Below, one piece after another: positions 457 through 9,060 of a DNA stretch of 9,417 bases; within the stretch, counting starts at the first letter, position 1, and each line of letters starts with the position of its first letter. The position numbers and the translations under genes were made by a program. Source of the DNA: a virus (lineage: Duplodnaviria; Heunggongvirae; Uroviricota; Caudoviricetes); IMG/VR virus record IMGVR_UViG_2700989509_000013. One strand, written 5' to 3'. Below the pieces are notes generated by a model. It made no database searches. It was given only the letters and a program-made list of their open reading frames with translations, and was not told where the DNA came from.

Positions 457-624
457 TCAAGCATTATGCAGGCTGTTTCTTTTTATCACCGGCCACAGCA
501 ATACCATAATGCCGCAGACCAGCACCCCATCCGCCAGCACCGACATGATTCTGCTGGTGAAATCCACCATCACCACCAGAAACAGCAGGAGTGCAGCCAC
601 AGTCAGGCGCAGTTTTACCGTCAC
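457..624 (-). CDS. Hypothetical small membrane protein, 55 aa, two predicted TM helices (not in the supplied ORF track)
   Basis: GTG start at 622-624 overlaps the TerB-like TGA stop (GTGA); GGAG lies 8 nt upstream. Translation MTVKLRLTVAALLLFLVVMVDFTSRIMSVLADGVLVCGIMVLLWPVIKRNSLHNA has two hydrophobic stretches and a short basic tail. Internal ATGs would give 37- or 29-aa products. Confidence 0.35.
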   Translation of the reverse strand: MTVKLRLTVAALLLFLVVMVDFTSRIMSVLADGVLVCGIMVLLWPVIKRNSLHNA

Positions 625-1053
625 AGGTGATTCTCCAGACGAAGACCCAGAACACCGGCAATCTCTTCCAGCACCTTGCGCTCTTCCGGCTCAATTTCGC
701 CGTCTGCCTCCGCAATGGCCACCGCCACATCCAGCACATCTTCCGCTTCACGCGTATCGTGTTTCACATCCTCGATCTCACGTAACGCCGCACGACGACC
801 AGTTTTAAAGTTCGTATCCAGCTGACCGATAATGGTTGCGCTAATCGCATTAATTTCTGACGTAAACGCGTACAGCGCAGGCTGATTACGCAGTACCTGT
901 TCGATCTTCGCTTTCTAGGAAGCCTCACATTCACCATCTGCATAGGCCACCAGGTATGCGGCGTTAATCACCACCTGTGCCAAATCGCGTTTTTCAAACT
1001 TTTTAATTTCCGTTGCCGCTCTGCGGGCTTTTTTTACCAAAAATACCAAACAT
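621..1053 (-). pseudogene. TerB-like (tellurite-resistance TerB family) gene, disrupted by a frameshift and an in-frame amber stop
   Basis: ATG at 1051-1053 reads MFGIFGKKSPQSGNGN then stops. The main frame (…EIKKFEKRDLAQVVINAAYLVAYADGECEAS*KAKIEQVLRNQPALYAFTSEINAISATIIGQLDTNFKTGRRAALREIEDVKHDTREAEDVLDVAVAIAEADGEIEPEERKVLEEIAGVLGLRLENHL) is offset by one base at the T7 run 1029-1035 and contains TAG at 915-917 (plus-strand cta). Span 433 nt is not a multiple of 3. Confidence 0.6.
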
Positions 1054-1185
1054 CGTGACGTTCCTTTGGGTGGGTGAGCCAACGCCCGGGAGCGATCTGC
1101 CCACAGAGAAAGTCACACTGACCACTCCGTAAGCTCCCCCCCGAAAGGCTCTGTGGTTGGTATGCGCCGGGCGTGGCGCAGATAC

Positions 1186-1209: not shown

Positions 1210-1225
1210 GGGAAAATAAGTGTAG

Positions 1226-1299
1226 CGCGTTGTACTGGAGTCGAACCAGTGACCGATTGCTTAGAAGGCAATTGCTCTGTCCTGCTGAGCTAACAACGC
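1226..1299 (-). tRNA. tRNA-Arg (anticodon UCU)
   Basis: Clean cloverleaf on the minus strand: acceptor GCGTTGT/ACAACGC, D-arm GCTC/GAGC, anticodon stem ATTGC/GCAAT with loop CTTCTAA, T-arm ACTGG-TTCGACT-CCAGT. CCA not encoded. Confidence 0.9.
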
Positions 1300-1312
1300 A
1301 GAATACCGATAA

Positions 1313-1388
1313 TGGACCACCACCGGGGACTCGAACCTCGCACACTCAACTTAAAGGGTTGACGCTCTTTCCTGATGGCTAGTGGCGG
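1313..1388 (-). tRNA. tRNA-like gene, structurally degenerate (possible pseudo-tRNA; anticodon loop CCUUUAA would read UUU)
   Basis: Acceptor CCGCCAC/GTGGTGG pairs (one G-U) and CCA is encoded; anticodon stem TCAAC/GTTGA is perfect. D-stem has only 2 pairs (GCCA vs GAGC), T-stem has an A-C mismatch, position 33 is C not U, discriminator is U. Confidence 0.45.
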
Positions 1389-1389
1389 T

Positions 1390-1465
1390 TGGTGGCCCTT
1401 GCTGGATTTGAACCAGCGACCTGGCGATTATGAGTCGCTCGCTCTCACCACTGAGCTAAAGGGCC
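1390..1465 (-). tRNA. tRNA with anticodon CAU (Ile2/Met type, ileX/ileZ-like), CCA encoded
   Basis: GGCCCTTTAGCTCAGTGGTGAGAGCGAGCGACTCATAATCGCCAGGTCGCTGGTTCAAATCCAGCAAGGGCCACCA: 7-bp acceptor, GCTC/GAGC D-stem, loop CTCATAA, T-arm GCTGG-TTCAAAT-CCAGC. Closely resembles remembered E. coli ileX. Confidence 0.9.
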
Positions 1466-1660: not shown

Positions 1661-2350
1661 TCAATCTACTTTTGCAACACTTTGCTTTGAAAATGCCGCC
1701 TTTTGTTTTGAACGTGTTCTCATTACAAACAATAAAGCCTCACTATCCAGTCGGTGAAAAATGTGTTTCATTGCAACCCAGTGACGAGTAAATGTTTTGG
1801 ACCAGTTTTTAGTTGTCACTCCCGCCAGTAATGCCAGCTCCTGATATTCATAACCTTCCCCACCAAAAAGTTCTGCTTTTACTGCCTGCGCCGCCAGCCA
1901 GATTAATTTTTTCAGGCGTTCCTGCGTTTTCCCAGCAATTTTTCTGGTACCGGATTGAGTATTAAATTCATTCCACGCCCACTGTGTTATCGCGATCTGA
2001 TATTCCCAACAAATACTCCCGCTGTAACACCACAACAACCAGGCTTTATGATGTTCTTCAAGAGACAGAACAGCCCGCCGCCACGATGATGTCGAAAACT
2101 CAACCGGACTGACCAGAGGAATTGACGTCACCTTCGCCAGCGATTGCTTTCCCGGGATTGGTGGATTATCCCGCGTTATCATTTTTCCAGTCACTTCATC
2201 GCGGTACCGGATTTTTTTTCGCCTGTAACGCCCTGTATCGAACATGGCATTCTCCTGCCAGGCTTCAAGCTGACCTTTTGTTGCCCCACTCAAATCAGCG
2301 GTGGCGATAATGAGCTGCTCACGCACAAACTGTAAATAGTGGTTATTCAT
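1661..2350 (-). CDS. Putative late antiterminator Q-like protein (229 aa from ATG 2350)
   Basis: Intact ORF directly downstream of rusA with ATGA stop/start overlap at 2347-2350, followed by terminator and tRNAs as in lambdoid Q regions. Assignment rests mainly on synteny; family not confirmed by motif. Track start at 2356 is GTG. Confidence 0.5.
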   Translation of the reverse strand: MNNHYLQFVREQLIIATADLSGATKGQLEAWQENAMFDTGRYRRKKIRYRDEVTGKMITRDNPPIPGKQSLAKVTSIPLVSPVEFSTSSWRRAVLSLEEHHKAWLLWCYSGSICWEYQIAITQWAWNEFNTQSGTRKIAGKTQERLKKLIWLAAQAVKAELFGGEGYEYQELALLAGVTTKNWSKTFTRHWVAMKHIFHRLDSEALLFVMRTRSKQKAAFSKQSVAKVD

Positions 2351-2712
2351 GCGCACTCCAGTTCTGTGATTTTTATCCCCAGCCGCCCACCAGGAACGAG
2401 CTGACCGCGCACAATATTGATTTCATCAAACTGCTCGTCGTCTATGAGAAGTCCGGCATGCGTCAGCACATCCAGTGGTGCTTTCAGGATATTGTCCAGG
2501 TCACGACGGCGCTTATCCGGTGGCTCTGCAATAATCTTTATCACCAGCCTTCCGGACAGGTTTAATTTCAGCCGCTGCTGGCGAACAATTAGCGCCACAT
2601 CACGGCGATAACGCTTTCCGGCTTCCGAGATGAAATACGTATTGCCATGACGTCGCCAGTAGGTATTCACCGTCGGCGGGTAAGGCAAAACAAATTCTAT
2701 CCGTTCAGTCAT
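2347..2712 (-). CDS. rusA: Crossover junction endodeoxyribonuclease RusA (Holliday junction resolvase)
   Basis: 121-aa product MTERIEFVLPYPPTVNTYWRRHG…DKRRRDLDNILKAPLDVLTHAGLLIDDEQ… matches remembered RusA (acidic catalytic motif, size). ATG at 2712 abuts the DUF968 stop at 2713-2715. Confidence 0.9.
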   Translation of the reverse strand: MTERIEFVLPYPPTVNTYWRRHGNTYFISEAGKRYRRDVALIVRQQRLKLNLSGRLVIKIIAEPPDKRRRDLDNILKAPLDVLTHAGLLIDDEQFDEINIVRGQLVPGGRLGIKITELECA

Positions 2713-4496: not shown

Positions 4497-4652
4497 TTAC
4501 TCCTCAGGTTCGTAAACTGTGAAGACAGCGACCTCCGTCTGGCCGGTTCGGATTCGTACCTCGCAGAGGTCTTTCCTCGTTACCAGTGCCGTCACTATGA
4601 CGGTTAAACAGATGACGATCAGGGCGATTAACATCGCCTTTTGCTGCTTCAT
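4497..4652 (-). CDS. hok: Hok-family type I toxin (HokD/RelF-like), 51 aa
   Basis: MKQQKAMLIALIVICLTVIVTALVTRKDLCEVRIRTGQTEVAVFTVYEPEE is a near-exact match to remembered HokD. ATG at 4650-4652 with AAGGAG 9 nt upstream; an in-frame upstream ATG at 4709 gives the 70-aa track ORF. Confidence 0.9.
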   Translation of the reverse strand: MKQQKAMLIALIVICLTVIVTALVTRKDLCEVRIRTGQTEVAVFTVYEPEE

Positions 4653-4830
4653 AGCCTGCTTCTCCTTGCCTTTCGGCACGTAAGAGGCTAACCTACATTT
4701 GTGAGACATAGATTGGGCCTCAGATTAATGTTAAGCGTCTTGCAGGACGCCGAATGTTAACTGGGGCTTTTCTCTATCTGCCTTTGGTGTTCATGCCTGA
4801 GACAGATAGCCTCAAGCACCCGCAGCCATT
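4653..4830 (-). promoter_or_regulatory. hok mRNA leader region (expected site of mok-like overlap, fold-back elements and antisense Sok-like RNA; not resolved)
   Basis: Position relative to hok plus inverted repeat CTATCTG/CAGATAG at about 4769-4808. Sok promoter could not be pinned down by eye. Confidence 0.3.
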
Positions 4831-5114: not shown

Positions 5115-5198
5115 TTACCCCCAGCGGCAAATCGAATACACCACCAGCGCCACCGCTATCGCAATTCCTACCGTTGTAAATGCTTCAGGCCAGGTCAT
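5115..5198 (-). CDS. 27-aa hydrophobic peptide (single predicted TM helix), translationally coupled to upstream gene
   Basis: ATG 5196-5198 overlaps the TGA of the 187-aa gene (ATGA); GAGGA lies 9 nt upstream. Translation MTWPEAFTTVGIAIAVALVVYSICRWG, stop TAA at 5115-5117. Not in ORF track. Confidence 0.4.
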   Translation of the reverse strand: MTWPEAFTTVGIAIAVALVVYSICRWG

Positions 5199-5758
5199 CG
5201 CAAAATATCCTCCGCGCTTATCAGTCCGTTTCGCTTCAGGTAGTCCATCGCCTTCTCCGGTAATTTGCAGTCCGGCTTAGCTTTTTTCAGTTGGCTGACC
5301 AGTCGCTTAACCCACATTGTTAATTCGCTAACCTGATTGCCGGATGCTGGGGGATTGTCGGCTTTACCCAGAATGGCAGCACAGCAGGCCTCTTTGAGTA
5401 CCCAATCAACAGCGTCTTTCCATGCTCCTGTTTCGACTGGAGGATTCTCACGCCGTACCTGTTCATAAAAGCGCACAGCTTTAACCAGTCCTTCAGGCAC
5501 TACCGGCACAGGTGGAGCGACGAATAGTGGTTTAGGTGATATCTCCGCACGTTTTGCGTATGCTTCAACTATATCAGGATTAAACAGGATTATGTTTTCG
5601 CCGCATTCCCACGCTATCGGTTCTGCTTCCAGCGATGCCAATGCAATTTTGAATAACTCACCCTCTACTCGTGCCATCCCTGAATTGGGATGGCATTTCG
5701 CAATCGCTATTTTTAATTTAGCTTCTTCGATTAATTGCTCTTTGGTTAATTCAGTCAT
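5195..5758 (-). CDS. Hypothetical protein, 187 aa, no recognised domain
   Basis: Intact ORF MTELTKEQLIEEAKLKIAIAKCHPNSG…AEDILR. Start ATG at 5756-5758 lies inside a 4-codon uORF (ATG 5763-5765, MKND*) and downstream of a hairpin; coding-like composition. Confidence 0.6.
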   Translation of the reverse strand: MTELTKEQLIEEAKLKIAIAKCHPNSGMARVEGELFKIALASLEAEPIAWECGENIILFNPDIVEAYAKRAEISPKPLFVAPPVPVVPEGLVKAVRFYEQVRRENPPVETGAWKDAVDWVLKEACCAAILGKADNPPASGNQVSELTMWVKRLVSQLKKAKPDCKLPEKAMDYLKRNGLISAEDILR

Positions 5759-5853: not shown

Positions 5854-6210
5854 TTATTCAGTTCTTGATTTTGCCGCCCTGCGTATACGTGCTTTCGCGT
5901 TACGCTCAATCTGAATTAGCTTTTCTATATTTCTCCGCCTTTCCCGTTCCTCCTGGCGCAAGAGCCTTACATCATCTGCCAGTCTGGTTTCTCTTTTCGC
6001 CATAGAGAGCATCCAGTCAAATGGCTCCACAACTGCACCGCAGATTTTACAGCGGACCTGACGCACTTTTTCGTCAACCCGGACAGAAGCGTGATGGCAA
6101 TATGGTCTTTCCGATGGCTCATAAAGAAAATTAACCTGATTACGTGGGTCATCCTCTTTTACCGGAAATAAAACAATATTACTTAACTCATCTTCTGGTT
6201 TTATTTCCAT
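5854..6210 (-). CDS. Hypothetical protein, 118 aa, possible zinc-ribbon (C-HH…C-x2-C) with basic C-terminal tail
   Basis: ATG 6208-6210 with AGGAGAGG 6 nt upstream. Contains YCHHASVRVDEKVRQVRCKICG and an Arg/Lys/Glu-rich C-terminal third. Overlaps the upstream gene by 23 nt. Confidence 0.6.
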   Translation of the reverse strand: MEIKPEDELSNIVLFPVKEDDPRNQVNFLYEPSERPYCHHASVRVDEKVRQVRCKICGAVVEPFDWMLSMAKRETRLADDVRLLRQEERERRRNIEKLIQIERNAKARIRRAAKSRTE

Positions 6211-6688
6211 GGTCCTCTCCTTTGATGCGAATGCCAGCGATAATTGAAGCCTGATAGCTAATTTTACTCACAGCCCCCCCCTGATAATTTCCCTGATAAA
6301 ACGCCAGCACTCGCTGCATAACTTCGCTCTTCCGGCACTCGCGACAGATTATATTCAGGCGCCTGTCGTAGCGACGTATTTCTCCGTCTGGTAATGACCA
6401 TATAAGGTCAGGATCAACCACAACCGGTTTCTTCAGCTTTGCCCTCGATAATTTTTTGCGGGCGTTTTGCCAGTCCTTACGCGCCTGTTCAGACGGGAAT
6501 AATCCGTAGCCTGAATTGTAAACATCACCACTGGCGACCAGTTCTCTGGCGAGAGTGCTTATGTAATACCTTGATGCACCGGTTTTAGCCTCCAGAGCCC
6601 GTAACGTCTCGCGACCGCTCAGACGTACAAGTTCAATAACCTGCCCTTTAATTTTTTCTCGCTCTTCTTGTGTAAAAACTTTTGCCAC
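6188..6688 (-). CDS. Hypothetical protein, 166 aa, GTG start, possible N-terminal HTH; occupies the position of a helicase loader but has no Walker motif
   Basis: GTG 6686-6688 preceded by AGGAGG with 4-nt spacer. N-terminal RETLRALEAKTGASRYYISTLAREL is HTH-like. No GxxGxGK[ST]. Confidence 0.6.
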   Translation of the reverse strand: MAKVFTQEEREKIKGQVIELVRLSGRETLRALEAKTGASRYYISTLARELVASGDVYNSGYGLFPSEQARKDWQNARKKLSRAKLKKPVVVDPDLIWSLPDGEIRRYDRRLNIICRECRKSEVMQRVLAFYQGNYQGGAVSKISYQASIIAGIRIKGEDHGNKTRR

Positions 6689-6728: not shown

Positions 6729-7811
6729 TTACCCCCTGAAGCCCGGTGGAATTTCGGTATCCGGTTCAGAAATATGATTCACACAACGCTGGTTGTTCGT
6801 GCCGCTTACCGGGAGCAACCAGGGGTTTTCAAAATTTCGGTCCGGTCCAAAAAACGTCGTCGCTCGCTGAACAAATTCCGTTCCAGTTTTCCCGGTAACC
6901 GCCAGATATCTTGCGTAACGCCTCACGCCATCCAGCATGGCCTCTGGTGGCACCCCCTCGCGTAATCTGGCCTTCCAGGCACTGAAAGCGGATTTCTTCG
7001 GGTTTGCCCCGGCACGCAACGGGTACTCCCGCCAGACCTGTTCGAACACATCCGGATAATCCACTCGTCCCACAGACTGCCCGGTGTTTTCCGGGACTAC
7101 CCGATCGGCTTCCCACTGAATGGCGGAATCGGCTTCAGGCTGCTGCAGTTGGAGTGATTGCTCCGGCCTTGCGGTCATCACCTGCTGCACAGCGCCCGAA
7201 TCGGCTTTCAGCGCATACGCTGAATCGGCTTCCGGTGTCGTGCCTGCTGGCTGACCAGGATTGACGGTCTGAACATCCCCTGCCTGGTTCGTGGCGTTTT
7301 TTACGCCATGGACCATAGTGTTTTGATCTTCTTTATCTGTATCTTTATCTGTATCTTTATCTGTATCTTTATCTGTCGTGACTTGCCGTGACATGTGCGT
7401 GACATTTCGTGACGCGCCGTGACAATCGCCATTTTGTTCCCGCTTTCTTTCCCTCTCTCGCTGCGCCCTCTTGCGCTCTGCAGGAGATTTTGCGGTTTGC
7501 GAAATATTGCCGTTGTCCTCTTTCAGCACCTGGCGTTTTTCCCATCCAGTGATTAAATCACCATCAAGTACCCGCCCCTGCATCGTCTGCAAAATTGAAT
7601 CAATTACCTCTTCTGTCACGTCGAGCGCACTTGCCAAATCTTCTGTCGTGACATCAATGTGACCTCGCGTGACATTTCGTGACGCGCTCACCAGGAGGTG
7701 GATATACACTGCCATCACTGTTGCAATTGGCTGCCCTGACACCCTGGCAATTGTTCGCCACTTAGGGTCATTTGGCATGTCATGCCATAATCTGAGCCAG
7801 GCGTTGGCCAT
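6729..7811 (-). CDS. Phage replication initiator (lambda O-like replisome organiser) with iterons inside the coding sequence
   Basis: 360-aa ORF from ATG 7809-7811 (GAGGTGA just upstream; track start at 7817 is GTG). N-terminal MANAWLRLWHDMPNDPKWRTIA…, central DKDT x4 linker, C-terminal …FEQVWREYPLRAGANPKKSAFSAWKARL… resembling remembered phage replication-protein C-terminal domains. Sits directly downstream of the cro-like/YdaT-like genes. Confidence 0.7.
   Translation of the reverse strand: MANAWLRLWHDMPNDPKWRTIARVSGQPIATVMAVYIHLLVSASRNVTRGHIDVTTEDLASALDVTEEVIDSILQTMQGRVLDGDLITGWEKRQVLKEDNGNISQTAKSPAERKRAQRERERKREQNGDCHGASRNVTHMSRQVTTDKDTDKDTDKDTDKEDQNTMVHGVKNATNQAGDVQTVNPGQPAGTTPEADSAYALKADSGAVQQVMTARPEQSLQLQQPEADSAIQWEADRVVPENTGQSVGRVDYPDVFEQVWREYPLRAGANPKKSAFSAWKARLREGVPPEAMLDGVRRYARYLAVTGKTGTEFVQRATTFFGPDRNFENPWLLPVSGTNNQRCVNHISEPDTEIPPGFRG
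7329..7376. repeat. Tandem 12-bp repeat, about 4 copies (CTTTATCTGTAT; 6-bp periodicity TATCTK), AT-rich
   Basis: Read directly at 7331-7376; encodes the DKDTDKDTDKDTDK linker on the minus strand. Immediately adjacent to iteron array A. Confidence 0.9.
7375..7425. repeat. Iteron array A: five direct CGTGAC repeats at about 10.5-bp spacing (probable origin of replication)
   Basis: CGTGAC begins at 7377, 7387, 7398, 7408 and 7418 (spacings 10, 11, 10, 10), in phase with the DNA helix and flanked by the AT-rich tandem repeat. Confidence 0.7.
7645..7687. repeat. Iteron array B: four GTGAC repeats at about 10-bp spacing
   Basis: GTGAC begins at 7648, 7659, 7668 and 7678. A 21-bp stretch GCGTGACATTTCGTGACGCGC (7667-7687) is repeated exactly at 7397-7417 in array A. 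Confidence 0.6.
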
Positions 7812-7882
7812 ACTCACCTCTTTTGATACCGAATCTTTTTACTCACAAATTGCCGGAAGTGATCCGGTATGAATATTGCGAG

Positions 7883-8308
7883 TCAATGCACAGCCACAAT
7901 ATTTCCTGCAGGGCCACCTCGATTTATCTGGTTGAAACCAGCGATCGCCACTGCGACAAAATCATCAGCGTCTCTCACCAGTCGCTCCCGCGTCTCCACC
8001 AGCTCCCGAAAATAAGCTGAACTGTGGCTGCGCATTCTGGCCACCAGCAAAGGTGGCATTGCCTTTTCGATCGCTGGTAACAGCGCCTGAATTTTTTTAA
8101 CCGCATCAGGAGTATCTTTCTCCACCCAGCGGAAAATTTTCTGAGTATTGCGAGCCAGGGCTTCCGGATGGCTGTCGTCATACAGTTCAGGAAACGTCAT
8201 ACCCAACTCAAAATAAGCCTGGGTTATTCCAGCTGCTGGAACTTTTTCGCCATCAGGACGCGCCCAGGCATTCATCGCCATGCGGATGTGTTCATGCTTG
8301 ATTTTCAT
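7883..8308 (-). CDS. YdaT-like prophage regulatory protein
   Basis: 141-aa product begins MKIKHEHI…, matching the remembered N-terminus of Rac prophage YdaT. ATG at 8306-8308, GGAG 8 nt upstream; overlaps the cro-like gene end by 17 nt. Confidence 0.7.
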   Translation of the reverse strand: MKIKHEHIRMAMNAWARPDGEKVPAAGITQAYFELGMTFPELYDDSHPEALARNTQKIFRWVEKDTPDAVKKIQALLPAIEKAMPPLLVARMRSHSSAYFRELVETRERLVRDADDFVAVAIAGFNQINRGGPAGNIVAVH

Positions 8309-8567
8309 GAATCAACTCCGGTGTATTTGGTGTGTTAGCCTTATCTCCAGCAGGCAACCCGTCAGTTGGATTCGGGTATAAATCTGGTCGCAATTCATGA
8401 GGAGTAACCCCAGTTGCAATATAAATTTGACGAACCCGTTCTCCCGTCGGCACTCGACCATTGTATTCATTTGCCCATTTGTGTATTTGAGATGGCCAAG
8501 CCCCTATTGCACGCCCTAGCGGACGAATACCACCAGCAATCTTTATTGCTTTGTCCAATGCTGTCAT
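8292..8567 (-). CDS. Cro-like HTH regulator of the YdaS/DicC family
   Basis: 91-aa product with …LGRAIGAWPSQIHKWANEYNGRVPTGERVRQIYIATGVTPHELRPDLY…, the YdaS/DicC-type pattern (…HELRPD). ATG 8565-8567 with GGAGG 4-5 nt upstream; divergent from the repressor gene. Confidence 0.75.
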   Translation of the reverse strand: MTALDKAIKIAGGIRPLGRAIGAWPSQIHKWANEYNGRVPTGERVRQIYIATGVTPHELRPDLYPNPTDGLPAGDKANTPNTPELIHENQA

Positions 8568-8670: not shown

Positions 8671-9060
8671 ATGGACATGAGAAAAAAGCAATACGACACC
8701 CCGCTAGCAGAAAGGTTAGATACGATCTCTCAACAGCATCATTTAAGTGGTTCAGATTTAGCGCGTATCGCTGGTGTAGGTCGTTCATCAGTCAACGCAT
8801 GGAAAAAAAGAGGAACAATCAGTAAAGATTCCGCAGCCAAAATTGCAGAAGCCACAAACGTTTCCCTTTCTTGGCTACTGACAGGGAAAGAAGAGACAAA
8901 TAGAGAGGCGCTTGATGATGACGAGAAGGCCCTGCTTGATGTTTACAGAAACCTGCCACCTGTAGAACGTAGAAATATGCTGGCAGCTTTTCAAATGCGA
9001 CTCCAAAAACTGACCGAATTTTACTCAGAATACGTCGACCCAATAACACGACAAAAATAA
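8671..9060 (+). CDS. DicA/CI-like phage repressor (XRE-family HTH, no peptidase domain)
   Basis: 129-aa product with N-terminal HTH (…LSGSDLARIAGVGRSSVNAWKKRGTIS…) and C-terminal helical region …LLDVYRNLPPVERRNMLAAFQMRL… resembling remembered DicA. Divergent from the cro-like gene. Confidence 0.8.
   Translation: MDMRKKQYDTPLAERLDTISQQHHLSGSDLARIAGVGRSSVNAWKKRGTISKDSAAKIAEATNVSLSWLLTGKEETNREALDDDEKALLDVYRNLPPVERRNMLAAFQMRLQKLTEFYSEYVDPITRQK

Follow-up and report, generated by a model that had tools for sequence, protein, structure and literature searches.

How can a lambdoid prophage replicate if its replication initiator gene is followed neither by the gene of a helicase loader nor by that of a helicase? 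This question is raised by a DNA stretch of 9,417 nucleotides (nt) from the virus record IMGVR_UViG_2700989509_000013, which was analysed as a whole and is termed the window in the following. It represents the early-right (pR) operon of a lambdoid prophage, complete from cI to Q, with the gene order read on the minus strand. The initiator gene (positions 6729-7817, minus strand) encodes a protein of 362 amino acids (aa), for which the role as replication initiator was already assumed in an original prediction for this DNA and which matches phrog_3729 ('phage replisome organizer') with an expect value (E) of 7e-252. At the position where a loader of the P- or DnaC-type or a DnaB-type helicase would be expected, it is followed by an open reading frame (ORF) of 166 aa starting with GTG (ORF166; 6188-6688, minus strand), overlapping by 23 nt with a second one of 118 aa starting with ATG (ORF118; 5854-6210, minus strand). 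Both reading frames are present as predicted, and they had been interpreted as unrecognised genes that either provide a non-canonical helicase loading route or are accessory genes inserted into the replication operon. Here, we argue that both are ordinary accessory genes located behind an initiator-only module, which itself probably uses the DnaB·DnaC complex of the host, and we consider this interpretation as a whole to be likely.

The absence of a loader after the initiator was confirmed, as the window, the early region of the prophage EC12 and the complete phage HannyBb all yielded no homologue of P, DnaC or DnaB. Searches of the window by tblastn using lambda P, a Rac P-like protein, phage and Escherichia coli DnaC and the P22 helicase yielded nothing. 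EC12, an E. coli prophage that is the closest relative with a complete genome (96.9% identical), contains no loader from the integrase to the lysis genes, and in the 45-kb phage HannyBb, in which the initiator is followed by a Ren-like gene, none was found by annotation or tblastn. The original prediction had left room for a loader located elsewhere in the same operon, and none was found there either. A loader or helicase gene is thus absent from the operon and from complete related phages, and therefore a route other than the one using lambda O and P must operate. With lambda O-P and P22 gp18-gp12 the window shares the early-right position after cII, a putative origin composed of iterons and an AT-rich tract inside the initiator gene and a two-domain initiator, of which the C-terminal part sets the partner, but it differs by the lack of a P-type loader or a DnaB-type helicase and by a DnaT-like C-terminus of the initiator. 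It thereby resembles the O-only modules as present in phage LLS, which encode a single initiator and neither a loader nor a helicase; these were described for 34 of 314 lambdoid phages and their replication mechanism was reported as 'not yet understood' (Genome Res 2025, PMC12315714). A literature search for initiator-solo replication, or for a phage replisome organizer acting together with DnaT, found nothing.

Could the two genes replace the missing loader? ORF166 and ORF118 are not helicase loaders, and no specific tie to loader-less modules exists for either of them. Profile and sequence searches against Pfam, PHROGs, NCBIfam, PDB sequences and PADLOC linked neither protein to a loader family, be it P, DnaC/IstB, DnaB or another, so that the profile search suggested in the original prediction did not bring up a known loader. 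This includes the Phage_lambda_P profile (PF06992), for which ORF166, ORF118 and the downstream ORF187 showed no match at E <= 0.1, the DnaC/DnaI/IstB AAA+ family (PF01695), for which no Pfam, NCBIfam or PHROG match was obtained for ORF166 or ORF118, and the DnaB-type helicases (P22 gp12-like), for which neither a profile nor a sequence match was found. Inspection of the sequences also confirmed that both proteins lack a Walker A motif (GxxxxGK[ST]). It is conceivable that ORF166 and/or ORF118 represent a new non-AAA+ helicase loader replacing P or DnaC, as they occupy the position of P and as lambda P also has no Walker motif, so its lack cannot exclude a loader function. The dissimilarity of both proteins to any loader family and their distribution in other phages make this highly improbable. 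Calling the genes unrecognised was too strong, as ORF166 matches the Pfam family DUF977 and PHROG 142, which includes lambda Ren, and ORF118 matches PHROG 1621.

The distribution of DUF977 genes was followed in a first sample of 80 viral contigs encoding a DUF977 protein at least 89% identical to ORF166, in which the upstream genes were classed using reference proteins; 71 loci were classifiable and nine were cut off. The DUF977 homologues listed for ORF166 all have more than 88% identity. DUF977 was preceded by a DnaC-like gene plus DUF1627 in 44 loci, by a lambda-P-like gene plus DUF1627 in 13 and directly by the initiator in 14, i.e., near-identical DUF977 genes (89-96% identity) are located behind a DnaC-like or P-like loader in 57 of the 71 classifiable loci, which argues against a loader function, as does the homology of ORF166 to lambda Ren, a protein coexisting with P. 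The annotated order is DNA-binding initiator, DnaC-like loader, DUF1627 and Ren-like gene in Shigella phage 75/02 Stx, and YdaU, P-like gene, DUF1627 and LygF in Rac-SA53. The DnaC-like + DUF1627 + DUF977 modules of 75/02 Stx and Rac-like prophages share with the window an initiator C-domain that is 64-97% identical, an identical DnaT-like tail, the same DUF977 gene and often ORF118, but they encode their own DnaC homologue and DUF1627, which are both absent from the window. DUF1627, composed of two winged-helix domains, of which one is weakly Ren-like, is found between the DnaC- or P-like loader and DUF977 in nearly all loader-containing modules (L006, L007, L011-L088), and in the second sample described below five loci show DnaC followed directly by DUF977. 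As DUF1627 is missing whenever the loader is missing, this suggests that loader and DUF1627 form a functional pair.

For ORF118 the counts in the first sample would at first favor a role in loader-less replication, as it directly follows DUF977 in 11 of the 14 loader-less loci, in six of the 44 DnaC-type loci and in none of the 13 P-type loci. This bias is much weaker in the second sample. Moreover, the 80 closest relatives of ORF118 occur in all module classes and also after Ea22-like genes, as exemplified by the Stx2a phage ArgO145, in which a 96%-identical copy is located among Ea22-like genes of the early region. Evi and HannyBb, two loader-less phages, lack ORF118 in the corresponding part of the operon, and a tblastn search of the phage collection with ORF118 hit neither of these records. 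Furthermore, initiators carrying the DnaT-like tail exist that have neither a loader nor DUF977 downstream (L138, L146, L154, L161), and at least in two of them neither of the two genes follows (L154, L138); in L154 a small methyltransferase-like ORF comes after the initiator, and then DUF968 and Q. From the two alternatives of the original prediction, the one of accessory genes is supported by the Ren family membership of ORF166 and the mobility of ORF118, and the one of a loading route via these genes is not, as nothing links them to it.

What, then, are these genes? Residues 1-136 of ORF166 cover positions 1-134 of the 134 positions of the DUF977 profile (PF06163) with 102.6 bits (cutoff 22.1), and the protein also hits phrog_142 ('Ren-like exclusion protein'), covering profile positions 1-112 of 116 (E = 7e-45). 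The full length of lambda Ren matches this PHROG too (E = 1.6e-41, profile positions 11-110 of 116). Both proteins have the C-terminal motif N-(I/L)-x-x-(R/K)-ECRxSxxMxRVLA in common, with 55% identity over 20 aa. A winged-helix fold was assigned to DUF977 by the profile methods HHpred and COMPASS (PMC2686095). The succession of a winged helix and the ECRxSxxMxRVLA motif is common to ORF166, lambda Ren and the PHROG 142/DUF977 proteins including Rac YdaW and Salmonella 'LygF'. A search of PDB sequences with ORF166 gave no match, and literature found for 'LygF' mostly consists of unrelated lysozyme papers. The location is conserved as well: lambda ren stands immediately after the genes for replication (segment cro-cII-O-P-ren; O-P-ren by annotation), in the window ORF166 follows the initiator as the last gene of the pR replication segment, and in the 80 loci DUF977 always directly follows either DUF1627 or the initiator. 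By sequence and gene order, ORF166 is identified as a homologue of lambda ren, with a predicted winged-helix domain and the conserved C-terminal motif, placed in the ren slot. It differs from lambda Ren in an insertion of ~45 aa that separates the winged helix from the C-terminal motif, in following the initiator rather than a loader, in a frame-shifted extension of 26 aa and in that its anti-Rex function is assigned by homology only. The gene is preceded by a strong Shine-Dalgarno sequence (CAGGAGGACTT-GTG), and in loader-containing relatives the homologous first codon at the same position is ATG.

As judged from the alignment with relatives, the length of 166 aa and the 23-nt overlap with ORF118 are the product of a G8 homopolymer (C8 on the plus strand; 6274-6281, minus strand), which sets the frame of the ORF166 C-terminus, and no feature of the family. 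In the aligned prophage EC12 (G6) and phage 813R8 (interrupted tract) the protein ends at 140 aa, and in both relatives a gap of ~55 nt and no overlap is found between this stop and the ORF118 homologue. Run lengths of 6, 7, 8 and 10 occur among close relatives, as in a slippage-prone tract, and of these the 8-base form alone results in the 166-aa product and in the overlap with ORF118. ORF166 homologues in databases have lengths of about 132 to 178 aa, and residues 137-165 of ORF166 match small orphan PHROGs only. The conserved core comprises aa 1-136 (about 6281-6688), and the final ~26 aa form an extension that depends on the frame. A programmed frameshift at this homopolymer was considered and is unsupported, as the extension is not conserved and the run lengths vary.

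To our knowledge, the relief of Rex exclusion is the sole phenotype known for any member of the Ren family; for lambda ren this was reportedly found by Toothman and Herskowitz in 1980. By homology to lambda Ren, the most likely role of ORF166 is to shield the phage, while it replicates, against Rex-type exclusion exerted by resident prophages, and it likely acts by binding to DNA via its winged helix. Alternatively, ORF166 might be a winged-helix regulator of transcription or replication, controlling origin firing or the downstream early genes, instead of an anti-exclusion factor. The fold would fit to such a function, the N-terminus of lambda Ren also matches a MarR-type regulator PHROG, and the gene keeps its position at the end of the replication module with any type of loader, which points to a task connected with replication. 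This is opposed by the family phenotype named above and by the finding of Hayes et al. (PMC3640518) that lambda ren was dispensable for the replication phenotypes they studied, so that we regard a regulator as rather unlikely and an anti-exclusion factor as the preferred assignment for ORF166.

ORF118 belongs to a family widespread among phages (PHROG 1621) and consists of a predicted zinc ribbon and a long invariant basic helix. Its start codon is preceded by a strong Shine-Dalgarno sequence (AAGGAGAGGACC-ATG), and it has, as has ORF166, many conserved homologues. The protein matches phrog_1621, a family of unknown function, with E = 8e-55 over aa 1-117, and a profile search of 1.84 billion representative proteins resulted in 1,627 clusters at E <= 1e-3; the remote relatives tested belong to the same PHROG 1621 and to no Pfam family. 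The two features noticed in the original prediction, a C-HH…C-x2-C cluster and a basic tail, are real. The cluster consists of C38-H39-H40 and C54-x2-C57, of which C38, H40, C54 and C57 do not vary among 24 homologues with identities down to 43%, and the Arg/Lys-rich C-terminus is the best conserved part of the protein, its helix LRxEExxRRxNIEKLIQIERNAKARIRR being invariant down to the same 43% identity. In an AlphaFold2 model (mean predicted local distance difference test score, pLDDT, of 75) a disordered N-terminus is followed by a two-hairpin zinc ribbon (about 6040-6099, minus strand) and one basic helix of 55 residues with pLDDT >90 (aa 63-117; about 5860-6024, minus strand). The hairpins at residues 43-46 and 51-54 of the model together with the four conserved metal ligands correspond to a generic zinc ribbon, as predicted from conservation and model. 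The similarity to a particular zinc ribbon is below significance: the TFIIB zinc ribbon (PF08271) of Pfam reached 17.5 bits with a cutoff of 29, it was also the best Foldseek hit of the model in the PDB (E = 0.16, non-significant), and a search of PDB sequences gave no match. Guessing from this modelled anatomy, ORF118 might be a dimeric coiled-coil adaptor binding to a conserved host protein or to nucleic acid.

If the loader is not encoded behind the initiator, the initiator itself has to be considered. It is composed of an N-terminal, presumably origin-binding part, a DKDT-repeat linker, a small helical C-domain and a flexible tail; its homologues begin at an ATG two codons after the GTG. 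With lambda O no significant similarity was detected by BLASTP (E = 0.07, only within the low-complexity linker). The parts are exchanged independently between phages, as the N-terminal part also occurs in fusion with a YdaU-type C-domain and the C-domain also occurs on initiators with unrelated N-terminal helix-turn-helix domains. A putative origin is located within the initiator gene (7330-7423). It comprises five CGTGAC repeats with a spacing of 10-11 bp (7377-7423, repeat family analysis), which adjoin an AT-rich tandem repeat of four 12-bp units (7330-7376) that also encodes the DKDT-repeat linker; the GC content drops to 0.38 at this site. A second cluster of CGTGAC/GTGAC repeats is present upstream of it, at 7647-7683 in the same gene. 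CGTGAC was observed 13 times versus 3.7 expected, a number that was reached in none of 200 shuffled sequences, and nine copies fall within 7377-7683. Iterons and an AT-rich region inside the initiator gene correspond to the layout known for lambda O, which marks this region as a candidate origin.

The C-terminus of the initiator (…SGTNNQRCVNHISEPDTEIPPGFRG-stop; 6732-6806, minus strand) resembles the extreme C-terminus of E. coli DnaT, with 15 of 25 residues identical, all within the last ~22 residues, and both sequences end their proteins. The shared ending is …SEPDTEIPPGFRG and the pattern of the tail reads …VNxxSEPDxxIPPGFRG. A comparison of the last 16 codons with dnaT shows six to ten synonymous versus two to four non-synonymous codon changes at a nucleotide identity of 31-35/48; as the codon changes are mostly synonymous, the tail peptide is under purifying selection. 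A recent capture of DNA from the host dnaT-dnaC operon was rejected as its source, as the peptide is conserved at this low nucleotide identity. Apart from the tail, no DnaT domain was detected in the initiator: PF17948 of Pfam did not match, NF002770 of NCBIfam reached 18 bits versus a cutoff of 201 and this in the tail only, and hhalign of the C-domain family with E. coli DnaT gave a non-significant probability of 1.5%, although the hhalign runs against E. coli DnaT and Rac YdaU reproduced, without significance, a by-eye alignment to helices 1-2 of DnaT. Therefore, we claim homology to DnaT for the tail only. The N-terminal domain, the acidic linker and the three-helix domain of DnaT binding to single-stranded DNA are not detectable in the initiator. 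An O-like N-terminus fused to the DnaT C-terminal motif was noted earlier for DopC (PMC5509034).

The occurrence of this tail follows the type of the loader. In the first sample it was seen on all 42 initiators that precede a DnaC-like loader, on all 14 loader-less ones and on none of the 12 that precede a P-like loader; the latter end with …EALDCTDWRDD. A second, independent and pattern-anchored sample consisted of 79 tail-bearing genes, of which 37 are followed by a DnaC-like gene, 34 by DUF977, five by neither and three are cut off; P-like or DnaB-like genes never follow. The spacer between initiator and DUF977 is 41 or 43 nt in all loci listed for this sample. The tail is found on at least five types of C-domains across the loci L009-L170, i.e., the type of the window, a lambda-O-like type, a type occurring on initiators whose N-terminal half is DUF1376 (YdaU-like), a DnaD/phiE125-gp8-like type and the complete C-terminal domain of DnaT. 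The lambda-O-like type is that of HannyBb, which is 34% identical to residues 130-270 of lambda O. A C-domain 97% identical to that of the window initiator is followed by a DnaC-like gene in two loci (L013, L032). Between the phage DnaC-like protein and E. coli DnaC the full-length identity is 51%, and the order of the sister phages, tail-bearing protein and then DnaC, is also that of the host operon dnaT-dnaC; enterobacterial dnaC is thought to be domesticated from a phage (PMC5109545).

The distribution suggests how the module might operate. The initiator would bind to the iterons inside its own gene, and its C-domain together with the flexible DnaT-like tail would bring in the host DnaB6·DnaC6 complex. 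In sister phages with a DnaC-type loader, it is in each case a phage-borne dnaC that follows this tail; the window lacks both such a copy and DUF1627, so that the loading would fall to the host DnaC. The initiator class thus likely works with DnaC-type loading, with host DnaB6·DnaC6 as its partner and the tail as the coupling peptide. The step involving the host complex is one that we infer from sequence comparison.

Several points weigh against the picture drawn here. An interaction of DnaT with DnaC was not demonstrated according to the literature (PMC11087952). The authors of preprimosome structures from 2026 favor the N-terminal domain of DnaT for the recruitment of DnaB/DnaC, and in these structures the C-terminal domain of DnaT docks on PriA (PMC13377028). 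The association of tail and DnaC may in part reflect linkage because the tail codons are located 6-9 nt upstream of dnaC, and the close relationship among the loci sampled means that there are fewer independent events than the counts suggest. For the two accessory genes, the bias of ORF118 towards loader-less over DnaC-type loci leaves a possible link to loader-less replication, and the role of ORF166 rests only on its homology to lambda Ren.

The docking of the DnaT C-terminal domain on PriA is also the basis of a serious rival, namely that the DnaT-like tail or C-domain recruits PriA, or that the phage uses a recombination-dependent, PriA-primed replication, without direct docking of DnaB·DnaC. 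Some loader-less initiators (L138, L161) carry the complete C-terminal domain of DnaT, a related prophage encodes a RecE-like exonuclease, and the O-only phage LLS was discussed with respect to recombination-dependent growth (PMC12315714). However, the tail never occurs with P-type and always with DnaC-type loaders, for which a link to DnaC itself is the simplest explanation, the window initiator has the tail only and not the helical domain of DnaT, and the iterons and the AT-rich region point to origin-dependent initiation. We therefore rate the PriA- or recombination-dependent route as unlikely, the docking of the host DnaB·DnaC complex being preferred.

As a further alternative, the prophage might be replication-defective, having lost the loader and DUF1627 by a deletion that merely moved the two genes next to the initiator. 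The sister modules with the order initiator, DnaC, DUF1627 and DUF977 and with an initiator C-domain 97% identical to that of the window (L013, L032) would be in line with such a loss, as would the frame-shifting homopolymer variant in ORF166. However, the junction of initiator and DUF977 with its 41-nt spacer and GTG start recurs in 34 of the 79 tail-bearing viral contigs, it also exists in HannyBb, Evi, mEp460 and Tritos, which were deposited as complete phage genomes, and 34 O-only lambdoid phages are counted in the literature (PMC12315714), making a defective prophage very unlikely. An origin of the junction by a simple recent deletion of dnaC and DUF1627 was rejected, as its sequence differs from both junctions of DnaC modules and its start codon is GTG instead of ATG. 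An initiator-only module using the host DnaB·DnaC complex thus stays the preferred explanation for the window.

The remaining operon fits to a lambdoid early-right region. A cI-like repressor is encoded on the plus strand (8671-9060), followed on the minus strand by a Cro/YdaS-like gene (8292-8567), a CII/YdaT-like gene (7883-8308) and the initiator gene. The genes in the Cro and CII positions (7883-8567, minus strand) carry the Pfam names YdaS_toxin and YdaT_toxin, and by position and PHROG matches they are Cro-like and CII-like regulators. Downstream of ORF118 the accessory gene ORF187 (5195-5758, minus strand) matches phrog_660, a family of unknown function (E = 5e-80). By neighbour counts ORF187 is a frequent, non-obligatory neighbour of ORF118, and its N-terminal segment IALASLEAEP is seen again in unnamed ORFs that lie downstream of other initiators with the tail (L138, L161). 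A defence-system interpretation was dropped, as PADLOC gave no match for ORF166, ORF118, ORF187 or the initiator. A scan of the minus strand from the initiator to ORF187 predicted a single terminator-like site, a weak stem of 5 bp (6542-6530), and no strong G+C-rich terminator; the next such site, which is long-stemmed, was located at 4428-4411 of the same strand. As no strong terminator is predicted between the initiator and ORF187, ORF166 and ORF118 are most likely co-transcribed with the replication gene.

Between ORF187 and Q a hok/sok module, a DUF968/HNH gene and RusA follow in this order. The hok/sok module consists of an ORF for a Hok-family toxin (4497-4709) and a sok antisense RNA (Rfam RF01794, 117 bits, 4647-4821), both on the minus strand between the replication genes and Q. 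The antiterminator Q (1661-2356, minus strand) is followed just downstream by three tRNA genes (Arg-TCT, Lys-TTT and Met-CAT; 1225-1465, minus strand). Beyond Q and the tRNA cluster, short ORFs at 621-1082 (minus strand) are TerB-like by eye, and related E. coli loci are annotated as 'tellurite resistance TerB family protein'; a match to the small RNA STnc100 (RF02076, 101 bits) is found at 280-452 on the minus strand. Together, the STnc100 match and the TerB-like ORFs may represent a disrupted cargo gene.

As a summary, ORF166 and ORF118 are not new in kind, as thousands of annotated genes of E. coli prophages are near-identical to them and their families are catalogued; the module adds one more case to the recognised O-only class. 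We hypothesise that what is potentially new is the rule connecting tail and loader, which resides in the neighbouring initiator gene and outside the coordinates of ORF166 and ORF118. The window is a clean example of an initiator-only lambdoid module, the class called 'not yet understood' in the 2025 survey, and the comparative rule gives the O-only problem a concrete and testable handle. Tentatively, and well aware that it could turn out otherwise, we propose that the …PDxxIPPGFRG tail, which E. coli DnaT has in common with many initiators of enterobacterial phages, serves as a portable docking peptide linking an organiser bound to DNA with the DnaC-dependent loading of DnaB, that O-only phages capture host DnaB6·DnaC6 by this means and that it might be the long-sought hand-over element of DnaT. 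If the tail docks to DnaB·DnaC, this would account for the replication of these phages despite their missing loader gene, and, if true, it would bear on an open question of replication restart in E. coli, namely how DnaT recruits DnaB/DnaC.

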